A DNA stretch of 4,561 nucleotides from a virus (Duplodnaviria > Heunggongvirae > Uroviricota > Caudoviricetes), in IMG/VR virus record IMGVR_UViG_2706794677_000005. One strand, written 5' to 3'. The position numbers were made by a program, and so were the translations under genes. Of the stretch, positions 117-4,561 are shown one piece after another; the stretch's first letter is position 1; the number at the start of each line of letters is the position of its first letter. Below the pieces are notes generated by a model, which was not told where the DNA came from, did no database searches, and saw only the letters and a list, made by a program, of their open reading frames with translations.

Positions 117-1613
117 ATGACGATAAGTTTTAATACTGTTCCGTCGAATACGCTGGTGCCGTTGTTCTACGCCGAGATGAACAATTCTGCGGCAAATACA
201 GCGGTGACCAGCGCGCCTGCATTACTGATCGGGCATGCCAGCAACGATGCAGCCATTGAGGTTAACAGCCTGGTGCTGATGCCATCGGCAGATTATGCCC
301 GCCAGATTTGTGGGGCGGGGAGCCAGCTGGCGCGTATGGTGGAAGTCTACCGTCAGACAGATCCTTTCGGTGAACTGTATGTTATTGCAGTACCGGAAGC
401 CAGAGGGGCGGCGGCGACGGTCAGGGTGACGGTTGCCGGAGAAGCAGAGGAAAGCGGCACCCTGAGTCTGTATGTCGGGCGCTCCCGTGTACAGGTGCCT
501 GTGGTGAATGGCGATGATGCCACTGCGGTTGCCACCGCGATTAAGGAAGCGGTAAACGGGGTTATCACCCTGCCGTTTACGGCGTCATCTGATGCAGGTG
601 TGGTGACGCTGACTGCCCGTCATAAGGGGCTGTATGGTAATGAGTTACCGGTCTGTCTGAATTATTATGGTTCTGGTGGTGGTGAGATTCTGCCAGCAGG
701 GCTTCGGGTGGTGACGGAAGTCGGTGCTGCCGGTAGCGGAGCGCCTGATCTTACCGCCGCTGTTGCTGCTATGGGCGATGAGGCATTCGACTTTATCGGT
801 CTGCCGTTCAACGATGCCGCCTCCATCAATATGATGATGACCGAAATGAATGACAGCAGCGGTCGCTGGAGTTATGCGCGCCAGTTATACGGGCATGGCT
901 ATACCGCAAAACTGGGAACGCTGTCAGAGCTGGTTGGTGCCGGAGATATGCATAATCAGCAACATATCACGCTTGCCGGTTACGAAAAAGAAACCCAGTC
1001 GCCTGTCGATGAACTGGTTGCCAGTCGCCTTGCCCGTGAAGCGGTATTTATCCGGAATGATCCTGCCCGTCCGACACAGACGGGGGAGCTGGTGGGGATG
1101 CTTCCGGCACCGAAAGGTAAGCGATTCATCATGACAGAGCAGCAGACCCTTTTATCTCACGGCGTGGCGACGGCTTATGTGGAAGGCGGCACGTTGCAGA
1201 TCCAGCGTTCCGTAACCACCTACAAAAAGAATGCGTATGGCGTGGCAGACAACAGCTATCTGGACAGTGAAACTCTGCATACCAGTGCATATGTTCTTCG
1301 CAAACTGAAATCGGTCATCACAAGCAAGTACGGACGTCACAAGCTGGCAAATGATGGTACCCGTTTTGGTCCGGGGCAGGCGATTGTCACTCCTGCCGTT
1401 ATCAAAGGGGAACTTCTGGCGACATATCGTCAGATGGAGCGTGCCGGTATTGTGGAAAATTACGATCTGTTTAAACAGTATCTGATAGTTGAGCGTGATG
1501 CAGATAACCCGAACCGACTGAATACGCTGTTCCCGCCGGATTATGTTAATCAGTTACGTGTCTTTGCGGTGGTTAACCAGTTCCGTCTTCAGTATTCAGA
1601 GGAGTCAGCATAA
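117..1613 (+). CDS. Phage contractile tail sheath protein (Mu gpL-like), 498 aa
   Basis: Longest ORF in the window, and ATG 117 is the first start after an in-frame stop at 108-110. AAGG Shine-Dalgarno-like motifs lie at 97-100 and 104-107. Size (~500 aa) and N-terminus (MTISFNTVPSNTLVPLFYAEM...) match my memory of Mu-like sheath proteins. It sits immediately upstream of a ~118 aa tube gene, a frameshifted chaperone and a tape measure gene, which is the canonical myovirus order. Family assignment is from memory, not a search. Confidence 0.75.
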   Translation: MTISFNTVPSNTLVPLFYAEMNNSAANTAVTSAPALLIGHASNDAAIEVNSLVLMPSADYARQICGAGSQLARMVEVYRQTDPFGELYVIAVPEARGAAATVRVTVAGEAEESGTLSLYVGRSRVQVPVVNGDDATAVATAIKEAVNGVITLPFTASSDAGVVTLTARHKGLYGNELPVCLNYYGSGGGEILPAGLRVVTEVGAAGSGAPDLTAAVAAMGDEAFDFIGLPFNDAASINMMMTEMNDSSGRWSYARQLYGHGYTAKLGTLSELVGAGDMHNQQHITLAGYEKETQSPVDELVASRLAREAVFIRNDPARPTQTGELVGMLPAPKGKRFIMTEQQTLLSHGVATAYVEGGTLQIQRSVTTYKKNAYGVADNSYLDSETLHTSAYVLRKLKSVITSKYGRHKLANDGTRFGPGQAIVTPAVIKGELLATYRQMERAGIVENYDLFKQYLIVERDADNPNRLNTLFPPDYVNQLRVFAVVNQFRLQYSEESA

Positions 1614-1969
1614 TGGCAAAGATCGCCGGAACCTGTTTTTTTAAAGTGGATGGTCAGCAGTTATCGCTGACAGGTGGCATTGAAGTGCCGATGAACACCA
1701 ATGTCCGGGATGACATCGTCGGCATGGCAGGGGATGTGGATTACAAGGAGACCTGGCGGTCACCTTACGTTAAGGGCACGTTTAAAGTGCCCAAAAACTT
1801 TCCGGTCGACAAAATTACCACCTCAGACCAGATGACGATTACCGCTGAGCTGGCAAACGGCATGGTGTATGTGCTTTCGGCGGCATGGCTGCACGGAGAG
1901 GCTAATCATAATGCCGAAGAAGGCACGGCAGATCTTGAATTCCACGGCGAAGAGGGAGGGTATCAGTAA
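1613..1969 (+). CDS. Phage tail tube protein (Mu gpM-like), 118 aa
   Basis: ATG 1613-1615 overlaps the sheath stop TAA 1611-1613 (TAATG junction). GAGGAG Shine-Dalgarno at 1599-1604 gives an 8-nt spacer. Small size and position directly after the sheath gene are typical of the tube subunit. Confidence 0.65.
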   Translation: MAKIAGTCFFKVDGQQLSLTGGIEVPMNTNVRDDIVGMAGDVDYKETWRSPYVKGTFKVPKNFPVDKITTSDQMTITAELANGMVYVLSAAWLHGEANHNAEEGTADLEFHGEEGGYQ

Positions 1970-2304
1970 TGGCAATGAACGTTACAGAAATAGTTTTAAA
2001 AAAACCGGTGACAGCGCATAACGAAATGCTGCATGTGCTGGAGTTGCGCGAGCCCACGTATGACGAAATCGAGGCGCTGGGTTTTCCTTTCATTATTTCC
2101 GGTGAAGGCAGTATTAAACTGGACAGCCAGGTGGCACTGAAATATATCCCGTTGCTGGCGGGGATCCCGCGTTCATCGGCGGCGCAGATGGCAAAACTGG
2201 ATATTTTTAAGACCAGCATGCAGATCCTGCGTTTTTTTACCCAGTCGGAGACGGGAAGCACCTCCGGAAACGACTCTACAATGTTGCCTGGTTCTGGAAA
2301 CTGA
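1969..2304 (+). CDS. Tail assembly chaperone, short zero-frame product (lambda G / P2 E / Mu gp41 analogue), 111 aa
   Basis: ATG 1969-1971 overlaps the tube stop TAA 1967-1969 (second TAATG junction). GGGAGGG Shine-Dalgarno at 1954-1960 gives an 8-nt spacer. It sits between the tube and tape measure genes, where the frameshifting chaperone is found in long-tailed phages. Zero-frame stop is TGA 2302-2304. Confidence 0.6.
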   Translation: MAMNVTEIVLKKPVTAHNEMLHVLELREPTYDEIEALGFPFIISGEGSIKLDSQVALKYIPLLAGIPRSSAAQMAKLDIFKTSMQILRFFTQSETGSTSGNDSTMLPGSGN

Positions 2305-2396
2305 ATCCACTGGAGCTGCGACGGGGGGCTGTTTCGCAGTTTACAGAACTGGAAGCCGAGGCCGTCCGCATTAACGAGGAGATGAAGCATGGCTGA
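1969..2396 (+). CDS. Tail assembly chaperone, predicted -1 frameshift fusion product (join 1969..2238 with 2238..2396; about 142 aa)
   Basis: The -1 frame is open from 2211 (after TAA 2208-2210) to TGA 2394-2396, overlapping the zero-frame ORF over 2211-2304. A T7 tract at 2232-2238 forms an in-register slippery heptamer T_TTT_TTT. The -1 frame stop overlaps the tape measure start (ATGGCTGA, 2389-2396). Predicted extension: ...QILRFF-YPVGDGKHLRKRLYNVAWFWKLNPLELRRGAVSQFTELEAEAVRINEEMKHG. Confidence 0.5.
2232..2238 (+). promoter_or_regulatory. Putative -1 ribosomal frameshift slippery heptamer T_TTT_TTT
   Basis: Seven consecutive T (2232-2238) in the X_XXY_YYZ register of the chaperone frame (codons cgT TTT TTT). 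It is the only strong slippery motif inside the 2211-2304 two-frame overlap. The P2 E/E' frameshift is reported at a similar T-run (from memory). Confidence 0.45.
2246..2266 (+). promoter_or_regulatory. Possible frameshift-stimulating hairpin (CGGAG / CUCCG stem, 11-nt loop)
   Basis: 5-bp stem cggag (2246-2250) pairing with ctccg (2262-2266) around the loop acgggaagcac. It starts 7 nt after the slippery heptamer, which is in the usual 5-9 nt spacer range. A stem this short could occur by chance. Confidence 0.2.
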
Positions 2397-4301
2397 CAGT
2401 TTTCAGCTGAAGGCGATCATCACTGCCGTGGATAAGGTATCGGCACCGCTGAAGGGAATGCAGCGCCAGCTGAAAGGTTTTAAAAAGGAGTTTGCCAGCC
2501 TGTTACTGGGCGCAGCGGGTGCCGGAACCGCAGTACTGGGGGCGCTGGCGCTCCCGGTCAAATCTGCCATTGCCCTTGAATCAAAAATGGCGGATGTCCG
2601 GAAAGTGGTGGATGGTCTGGATACGCCGGAAGCGTTTAAGGCAATGACGGAGCAGGTGCGCGACCTGTCAACAGAACTGCCCATGTCGGCGGAAGGTATC
2701 GCCGAAATTGTGGCGGCGGGTGGTCAGGCTGGTATCGCCCGTGACGAGCTGATGCAGTTTACTGACGATGCCGTGAAGATGGGCGTGGCCTTTGACACCA
2801 CGGCAGAAGAATCCGGTCAGATGATGGCGCAGTGGCGCACTGCCTTTAAACTGACACAGGGAGAGGTGGCAGGGCTTGCGGATAAGATTAACTATCTTGG
2901 TAATACCGGTCCTGCAAGTGCGAAAAAGATTTCTGATGTTGTGACCCGTATTGGCCCTTTAGGCAGTGTTGCGGGTGTGGCCTCCGGAGAGATTGCCGCA
3001 ATGGGGGCAACCATTGCCGGAATGGGGGTGGAGTCAGAAATTGCTGCGACGGGGATAAAGAATTTTATGTTGTCGCTGACAGCGAGGGATTCTGCCACCA
3101 AATCGCAGAAAAAAGTGCTCCGCTCGTTGCGCATTAGCCCGAAAAAACTGGCGGCGGATATGCAGAAAGACGCCCGCGGGGCCATGCTGCACGTACTGGA
3201 TTCTCTGGCAAAAGTGCCGAAAGAAAAACAGGCTGCTGTGCTGAAAGCGCTGTTCGGGAAGGAATCNNNNNNNNNNNNNNNNNNNNNNNNNNNNNNNNNN
3301 NNNNNNNNNNNNNNNNNNNNNNNNNNNNNNNNNNNNNNNNNNNNNNNNNNNNNNNNNNNNNNNNNNNNNNNNNNNNNNNNNNNNNNNNNNNNNNNNNNNN
3401 NNNNNNNNNNNNNNNNNNNNNNNNNNNNNNNNNNNNNNNNNNNNNNNNNNNNNNNNNNNNNNNNNNNNNNNNNNNNNNNNNNNNNNNCAGAGAAAATCCT
3501 GAGGTCGTAAAAACCATCGCGAAAACTGGTGCGGCATTACTGACGATGGGCGTGGCGATTGGCACATTGACACGCATAACAAAAATCATGGGTAGCGTGA
3601 TGAATATGACGCCGGCAAAGGGATTAATTGCGCTTCTCGTCGGTGGTGCATATCTCATAATTGATAACTGGGAAACGGTCGGTCCGGTTGTGAAAAAAGT
3701 CTGGCAGGAGGTTGATCAGGTTGTCAGAGCAATGGGGGGATGGGAACAGGCAGTAAAAACAATAGCAACGGTTTCTGCCCTGTATATTGGTGTGAAGGCG
3801 GTGGCAAGTATTCGTGCGGCAACAGTCGCCCAGAATCAATGGACAACGGCGGCAGGAAAAACAGGGCTGAAATTAAAGGGCCTCGGAAAGATCAGTCTGA
3901 TTGGTGGATTGCTTGAACTGGGCATGATGGCGCAGGAGTTTGAAAAAGCACATCCCTGGCTTGTTAAAAATTTTGTGGCTGATGCACTGAACAGTGGATT
4001 TGGTCTGAATGATAAGTTCGACGAGTGGGGCAAACAGTTCCATGATTTTGTCTATGACATGACCGGATGGCAGATGCCACGTGGTGATGGGTATTTATCT
4101 CCCGATAAACGCTACACCCCGAATGTATCACTGGAAAGGAATCAGCTGTTAAGCCTTGCATCTTCACCGGCAACCCGCAGCGAACTTAAGGTGACGTTTG
4201 ACAACGCGCCGCCTGGAATGCGCGTTATCGATTTGCCGAAAACAGGCGATCCCTTTATGAAAATCACCCATGATGTTGGGTATTCTCCATTTAAAAGGTG
4301 A
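2389..4301 (+). CDS. Phage tail tape measure protein (Mu gp42-like), one gene interrupted by an assembly gap at 3267-3487
   Basis: ATG 2389 with GAGGAG Shine-Dalgarno at 2376-2381 (7-nt spacer). The N-terminal part is Ala/Gly/Met-rich with a motif typical of tape measure core regions (EIAAMGATIAGMGVESEIAATGIKNFMLSL). Downstream of the gap the reading frame is open from the first called base (3489: RENPEVVKTIAKTGAALLTMGVAIG...) to TGA 4299-4301, so track ORFs 2389..3510 and 3546..4301 are two pieces of one gene. Visible coding is about 292 + 271 codons plus the unknown gap content. Confidence 0.8.
3267..3487. other. Assembly gap (221 N) inside the tape measure gene
   Basis: Uninterrupted run of n from 3267 to 3487. 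The flanking coding frames differ (5' part in frame 1, 3' part in frame 0), as expected if the gap length is an estimate. Confidence 0.95.
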
Positions 4302-4368
4302 GTTCTTTTTTTGTGGTGAAAGATGAGGCAAAATTATCGCGTAACATGCTAACAATGGAGTTTGTTTT

Positions 4369-4500
4369 GTGATAAAGCCATTTTTAATGACGGTTGCAAT
4401 ATTAACCTCTTGCTGTGCTCAGGCGAAAATACTAACAAATGAGGAGATTGTTTCACGATTTATTAGTAACGTTAAAACGGTGATGCTGCCAACTTACTGA
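4369..4500 (+). CDS. Hypothetical small exported peptide or lipoprotein (43 codons from GTG; alternative ATG at 4387)
   Basis: GGAG at 4357-4360 lies 8 nt upstream of GTG 4369. Translation V/MIKPFLMTVAILTSCCAQAKILTNEEIVSRFISNVKTVMLPTY has a short signal-like N-terminus (basic K, hydrophobic PFLMTVAIL), then a lipobox-like L-T-S-C and also an A-Q-A signal peptidase I-type site. It lies in the AT-rich segment after the tape measure gene. The ORF is very short and has no homology support here. Confidence 0.3.
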   Translation: MIKPFLMTVAILTSCCAQAKILTNEEIVSRFISNVKTVMLPTY

Positions 4501-4561
4501 TTTAGTGTATGATGGTGTTTTTGAGGTGCTCCAGTGGCTTCTGTTTCTATCAGCTGTCCCT

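Follow-up and report, generated by a model that had tools for sequence, protein, structure and literature searches.

The stretch of DNA analysed here (the window; 4,561 nucleotides (nt) of the Caudoviricetes record IMGVR_UViG_2706794677_000005 in IMG/VR) is the tail module of a temperate myovirus, with genes for the sheath, tube, tail chaperone and tape-measure protein (TMP). A stretch of low guanine-plus-cytosine (GC) content begins after the end of the TMP gene at 4301, and within it lies a 43-codon open reading frame (ORF; 4369-4500), which runs from a GTG start at 4369-4371 to a TGA stop at 4498-4500. A first-pass annotation had read this ORF as a small gene for an exported peptide or lipoprotein, and direct reading of the sequence bears out the features that it named: the start, stop and length, the GGAG motif separated from the GTG by an 8-nt spacer, the AT-rich setting and, in the 43-amino acid (aa) product MIKPFLMTVAILTSCCAQAKILTNEEIVSRFISNVKTVMLPTY, both LTSC at residues 12-15 (Cys15) and AQA at residues 17-19. 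As the window contains 42 ORFs of at least 30 aa, the length of the ORF alone is no evidence of coding; codons 1-37 are taken as coding because homologues support them. The ORF is very probably a chimeric pseudogene stump, the remains of a 160-codon prophage gene for an exported protein, of the accessory type termed moron, that was cut by the insertion sequence (IS) IS1.

The junction between phage and IS1 sequence is sharply defined. When positions 4200-4561 were compared by megablast with complete Escherichia coli genomes, the query split in two at ~4479. Bases up to 4478 match 11 E. coli chromosomes at 96-100% and then diverge, at sites annotated as "phage tail tape measure protein" and "hypothetical protein", and for bases from ~4479 there are matches in thousands of records, annotated as "IS1-like element IS1A family transposase". 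Positions 4479-4561 are identical at 83/83 bases to the left end of the IS1 inserted in yrhA of E. coli K-12, where the IS1A transposase coding sequence (CDS) begins 55 nt inside the element, and the IS1 terminal inverted repeat (GGTGATGCTGCCAACTTACTGAT...) is present at the element end in the window. In an alignment of the junction, the intact allele departs from the window exactly at 4479; intact alleles read ...NVKTSADNDVD... at this point, and the window reads ...CGTTAAAAC followed directly by GGTGATGC.

The window stops within the IS element, and the complete insertion can be seen in two other loci. A whole IS1 of 768 bp, within which a DDE_Tnp_IS1 gene is called, lies at 2232-2999 of an IMG/VR contig (L012) and at 8111-8878 of locus L042, and in both CGTTAAAAC stands on either side of it as a 9-bp duplication. 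Because the native sequence ends at 4478 and IS1 starts at 4479, IS1 supplies everything in the ORF from the third base of codon 37 onwards, including codons 38-43 and the stop codon. IS1 would have entered the 160-codon moron gene after codon 37, duplicating the 9 bp CGTTAAAAC, and the open frame would continue for 6 codons into the IS1 inverted repeat before meeting the TGA. The terminal repeat, the 768-bp length, the 9-bp duplication, the AT-rich target, insA/insB and the IS-rich Shigella sonnei host are all shared with known IS1 insertion pseudogenes of Shigella, from which the present case differs in nothing material; it is a standard IS1 gene disruption.

Two further observations concern IS1 copies and their flanks. 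The 28 nt to the left of IS1 in the window (4451-4478) resemble the 27 nt to the left of the K-12 yrhA element (L006:900-926), with 20 identical columns (TTTCA..ATTTA.T..T.AC.TTAAA), and the megablast matches to IS1 therefore ran on into the flank; this likeness could reflect IS1 target preference or chance. In a second assembly with the same 43-aa ORF (L043:4881-6424), the gene contains two tandem IS1 copies 8 nt apart (TACATCGG), with the same CGTTAAAAC at the outer flank of the pair, which may represent a second insertion or an assembly effect.

The uninterrupted gene is found in several enterobacterial genomes. In E. coli FDAARGOS_944 (L001) and AST215 the same GTG opens a 160-codon CDS (WP_000594909.1, "hypothetical protein" in RefSeq), which occupies a slot between the TMP gene and a gene resembling the DNA-circularization gene N of phage Mu (hereafter the N gene). 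The same full-length gene (1-160), with the same tail genes upstream, is present in Shigella flexneri SFBU1023, E. coli ECMA0423 and several IMG/VR contigs. The intact protein aligns from end to end with the profile phrog_5586, a family listed as of unknown function (residues 1-160 against profile positions 1-161, E 9.7e-89), of which the window holds residues 1-37 only. In FDAARGOS_944 itself, ISEc60, an IS4-like element, interrupts the sheath gene of the prophage that carries the intact gene (L001:1051-2241); this prophage is also defective.

The proposal that the 43 codons make up a true small gene, encoding a lipopeptide or exported peptide of 24-29 residues that is possibly still made from the stump, has to be weighed against these alleles. 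Its ribosome-binding site, start codon, signal peptide and lipobox are all intact, and GenBank calls it a hypothetical protein in two S. sonnei assemblies (SS322685_3657 in strain 3226-85). However, the final 6 codons and the stop come from IS1, all IS1-free alleles extend to 160 aa, of the predicted fold (described below) the stump holds no more than part of the first helix, and the locus is a decaying prophage full of IS elements. We consider a functional small gene scarcely credible, and as an evolved gene the 43-codon ORF is already contradicted; no contrary evidence to its identity as an IS1 stump was found in this analysis. The 43-codon gene of the first-pass annotation is thus rejected in favour of a gene of 160 codons cut by IS1 after codon 37, and with it the mature peptide of 24-29 residues. 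Its idea of an exported moron holds in part, and that of a small peptide does not, the small size being a truncation made by IS1.

Table 1. Features of the window, with the evidence or comparison for each.
Feature	Position	Strand	Evidence or comment
Sheath gene	117-1613		
Tube gene	1613-1969		
Tail chaperone gene	1969-2304		
Tape-measure gene (TMP)	2389..4301	+	649-aa PhageMin_Tail CDS in L042, L001 and L012
5' intergenic leader of the moron gene, GGAG at 4357-4360	4302..4368	+	Sequence; intact loci have an identical leader
Surviving native 5' part of the moron gene (160 codons when intact): codons 1-36 and two bases of codon 37	4369..4478	+	100% identical to L001:6170-6279
Signal peptide region: n-region MIK, h-region PFLMTVAIL, lipobox LTSC 4402-4413, Cys15 4411-4413, AQA 4417-4425	4369..4425	+	
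IS1 target site CGTTAAAAC, left copy of the 9-bp target-site duplication	4470..4478	.	Recurs immediately next to the IS1 right end in L012 (3000-3008) and in L042
IS1, left end, with the terminal inverted repeat starting at 4479 and the GTG start of insA at 4534	4479..4561	+	Window stops within the element
IS1-derived ORF tail: third base of codon 37, codons VMLPTY (38-43), stop TGA	4479..4500	+	Reading frame across the junction

The wider context of the insertion is that of a degraded prophage. An exact search with the 43-aa product located it on contig AGRD01000060.1 of S. sonnei 3226-85 and in one further assembly. The window is 99.97-100% identical to that contig in the stretches compared on either side of a run of undetermined bases (N-run), and is a remnant of an SfV/phiP27-like prophage that has a contractile tail of the Mu type and is heavily decayed; the ORF is therefore a pseudogene stump. 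Within the window, IS600 borders the prophage sequence at the left end and IS1 at the right end. Positions 1-97 are the terminal part of IS600 (IS3 family) and adjoin the sequence immediately 5' of the sheath gene, with the result that the DUF2635 and tail-terminator genes of intact relatives have been cut away. Further left, locus L042 carries an IS4-family element beside a prohead-protease fragment, and the S. sonnei locus has a second IS1 within the baseplate genes and lacks the head genes. Partial proteins from other S. sonnei assemblies either stop at residue 37 (P0038) or start in the right end of IS1 and continue with VKT (P0043), and the same insertion is therefore common in S. sonnei. 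In the S. sonnei genome the gene is dead.

Two details of the upstream genes bear on the reading of the window. The N-run at 3267-3487 spans 221 nt, as compared with 258 nt for the same stretch in the identical loci L042 (6862-7119) and L012 (983-1240), and the apparent break in the TMP frame (2389-3510 and 3546-4301) is therefore an artefact of this masked or gap stretch, the real TMP being a single protein of 649 aa. Within the tail chaperone gene there is a T7 slippery run (T TTT TTT, 2232-2238), from which the -1 frame stays open until it meets a TGA (2394-2396) and overlaps the start of the TMP gene (2389), the programmed -1 frameshift customary in tail assembly chaperones.

The phrog_5586-type family is small and enterobacterial. 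Its members from E. coli, Shigella and Yersinia (clade A) share 74-100% identity, and a second group at ~50% identity (clade B) comprises phage vB_EcoM-720R4 and 20 IMG/VR contigs; two more distant proteins (P0011 and P0012; 38-43% identity) are encoded in the same slot between TMP and N genes. Homologues of ~25% identity (P0022, P0024 and P0027) lie outside tail modules, on phage-plasmid-like contigs of 20-39 kb, beside IncFII repA, ParA, cI-like repressor and toxin-antitoxin genes. When distant members were used as tblastn queries against phage and plasmid collections, one deposited phage and one weak match in a plasmid were the only additions. Within the tail slot, the identities between moron proteins and between the adjacent N proteins are 50/53, 74/67, 42/52 and 43/67%, respectively, and divergence about as fast as that of the N protein fits long residence with occasional loss.

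An AT-rich near-palindrome TTTAAATAAATATTTAATAA is shared by all of the distant homologues on the phage-plasmid-like contigs, upstream of the gene (L034:688-739, L035:2713-2918 and L036:1981-2043) and may be an operator or promoter element. Three much larger proteins (P0017, P0018 and P0020; 883-2363 aa) match profile positions ~31-103 in 9-12 repeated stretches; P0017 consists of Cys- and Thr-rich repeats of ~48-50 aa (...CDSTATL...SSSTT.ASIC.GESYTFNG...), and the match is probably one of composition rather than homology.

Judged by criteria for morons taken from PMC3594210, of which only a promoter was not detected, the intact gene behaves as a moron and not as a tail part, which upholds this aspect of the first-pass annotation: an AT-rich accessory gene within a tail module, not a tail component. 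Its GC content is 0.37, compared with 0.52 for the TMP gene and 0.55 for the N gene, and it deviates from its neighbours in 7/8 loci, the exception being L035 (0.547 versus 0.548 and 0.508). An intrinsic terminator, consisting of a stem-loop and a T-run, follows the stop codon at L001:6658-6680, beyond the point at which the window ends, and similar hairpins in L003, L038, L039 and L034-L036 bring the loci with terminators to seven of eight, L041 being without one. In phage phiP27, whose flanking sequences are 96% identical, the TMP and N genes are separated by only 15 nt; hence, the ~595-bp cassette represents extra DNA.

These observations also bear on whether the gene could instead encode a structural or assembly accessory of this tail type. 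Such a role would account for its occupation of the same slot between TMP and N in four lineages at 38-100% identity, for a rate of divergence about that of the N gene and for its tight packing in L041. On the other hand, a Sec signal peptide would remove the protein from the cytoplasm, where tails are assembled; the gene is absent from phiP27 in spite of its 96%-identical flanks, and from SfIV and ST64B; tblastn found it in only one deposited phage; it combines deviant GC with a terminator inside an operon; and it has homologues outside tail modules. A tail accessory is therefore very unlikely, and we retain the assignment as a moron.

Among described systems, one close to the intact gene is gene 15 of HK97, a moron for superinfection exclusion (Cumby et al. 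2012; reviewed in PMC3594210). Both are small, envelope-targeted accessory genes beside the TMP gene of a temperate phage, with deviant GC and a terminator of their own, and both are missing from related phages. They differ in that gp15, a member of the YebO family, is small and located in the inner membrane, whereas the exported beta-strand protein described here has 160 aa and is unrelated to gp15 in sequence; a promoter was not detected here, and exclusion would be by analogy only. Cor (phi80/N15/HK022), Llp (T5) and Bor (lambda) are likewise phage-encoded proteins with a signal peptide and a lipobox (here in clade A), encoded among or beside tail genes, for which an envelope role is plausible. 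Unlike them, most members of the present family are not lipoproteins, and there is no match of sequence family. The comparison with Cor and Bor in the first-pass annotation thus stands as an analogy only, with no Pfam, NCBIfam or PADLOC family match behind it.

All full-length members of the family start with a predicted Sec signal peptide. For lipidation we applied a PROSITE PS00013-style pattern ([LVI][ASTVI][GAS]C after a hydrophobic stretch, with Cys at 15-35 and K/R near the N terminus), and the assignment of export and lipidation rests on such pattern rules and on conservation. The ORF product matches the pattern at FLMTVAILTSC, with Cys15 and a lysine in the first 7 residues (K3), and together with the alignment of homologues this supports the signal-like N terminus with a lipobox described at first pass. 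In members beyond clade A the signal has no Cys and terminates in AXA, with K or G as the next residue (for example, SFA, ALA, VFA, VSA or AMA before K, and ANA before G). In clade A the aligned AQA before K is kept and two Cys residues have been added just upstream, giving L[TI]SC with Cys15. The motif L[TI]SCC is found in all clade A copies, including the 74%-identical one of Yersinia, while nearby residues vary, and the lipobox is absent from clade B and all more distant members.

On this evidence, the signal peptide would have gained a lipobox in the E. coli/Shigella/Yersinia clade. The clade A protein would probably be diacylglycerol-modified at Cys15, cut by signal peptidase II and, since Cys rather than Asp stands at +2, sorted to the outer membrane; in the remaining clades, cleavage at AXA would release a soluble periplasmic protein. 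Alternatively, the intact protein could be soluble and periplasmic in all clades, with the clade A lipobox incidental and signal peptidase I cutting after AQA. This is suggested by the AXA then K or G, without Cys, at the aligned position in all other clades, by the retention of AQA, TQA, VQA or SQA in clade A, and by the position of Cys15 at the lower limit accepted for a lipobox. It is opposed by the occurrence of L[TI]SC with Cys15 in every clade A copy, the 74%-identical Yersinia sequence included, among variable neighbours, and by the full agreement with the lipobox pattern; E. coli normally lipidates signal peptides with a well-placed lipobox. We regard a wholly soluble protein as a serious but the less probable alternative to lipid anchoring in clade A, and the family may have shifted from a soluble to a lipid-anchored form in this clade.

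The homologue from Yersinia enterocolitica (L038:4975-5003) is annotated from an internal ATG (MMLISCC...), with an upstream ATG and an A6 run out of frame by one base. One extra A in this run would restore a full signal peptide, MKKTYLLVFMMLISCC; a frameshift, an error in sequencing or phase variation could each account for the offset.

The structure of the intact protein was predicted with AlphaFold2. A first model, from a 5-sequence alignment, had a predicted local distance difference test score (pLDDT) of 40 and was discarded. With 12 diverse sequences the model reached a pLDDT of 84.6 and a predicted template modelling score of 0.78, and it consists of a disordered signal peptide, a helix at residues 24-41 and eight beta-strands. 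Of these parts, the stump has the signal peptide, about 18-23 residues belonging to the first helix and none of the eight predicted beta-strands. C57 does not vary in the family, and every full-length member has C150; this conservation suggests a disulphide, in which the two residues would pair in the periplasm.

A string SASGA in the sequence prompted comparison with lysozyme inhibitors of the MliC/PliC type, which could shield the murein of the lysogen from the lysozymes of incoming phages or of the host. Profile-profile comparison (hhalign) with an MliC/PliC alignment gave a probability of 0.1%, and there is no match to the corresponding Pfam family (PF09864) at E up to 10. Nor do the motifs of these inhibitors (SxSGAxY and YxxxTKG) recur in the same arrangement: SASG is present, with the A and Y positions of the motif variable in the family, it lies 3 residues past the first Cys as compared with ~35 in MliC, and a TKG motif is lacking. 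Higher scores are reached by other barrels that are unrelated. Given the hhalign result and the different register of the motif, we rejected this relationship, and an inhibitor of this type is improbable.

By analogy with HK97 gp15, Cor and Llp, rather than by homology, the most likely role is that of a binding or blocking protein in the envelope, acting in phage exclusion or envelope masking, which we put forward tentatively. Such a protein would act in the envelope to the benefit of the lysogen or of the phage. More specifically, and with still less assurance, the phrog_5586 family could represent an undescribed class of phage-encoded beta-barrels, periplasmic or anchored in the outer membrane, that block phages with Mu/SfV-type tails or mask the envelope component that these use.

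Several points weigh against a function of this kind. Neither library, profile nor structure searches gave a homology or specific fold match that would indicate a function for the intact protein: Pfam gave no match, and NCBIfam and PADLOC (anti-phage defence) 0 families, at E up to 10; a sequence-profile search of the PDB gave no match; and Foldseek against the PDB and BFVD gave none at E up to 0.001. Rfam at E up to 1 gave two sub-threshold chance matches only, none of them in 4357-4500 of the window. No paper was found in the literature under the accession, PHROG identifier or phage name. A simple scan of L001:5900-6800 revealed no sigma-70 consensus promoter upstream. In L041 the gene lies 16-17 nt from each neighbour without a terminator, and there it may be expressed as part of the late tail operon instead of from the prophage. 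Lipidation is not certain, because the lipobox is limited to one clade and the ancestral AQA is retained. Finally, divergence roughly in step with the N gene also fits a long-resident accessory gene that serves the lytic cycle of the phage itself.

The disrupted allele adds one further IS-inactivated prophage gene to the record of genome decay in S. sonnei. It also carries a caution for annotation: an IS that cuts a longer gene can yield a tidy small ORF, complete with ribosome-binding site, signal peptide and stop, and ORFs that abut IS ends should be compared with IS-free alleles. The family itself is a modest lead, an uncharacterised exported protein with a predicted beta-barrel-like fold and no match to a known family beyond phrog_5586, which has held one and the same position in the tail module of several temperate phages of enterobacteria. 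Exclusion by the intact E. coli or S. flexneri allele would be cheaply testable. If the family does form a blocking class, its persistence beside the TMP gene would reflect a functional link with tail-mediated DNA delivery.
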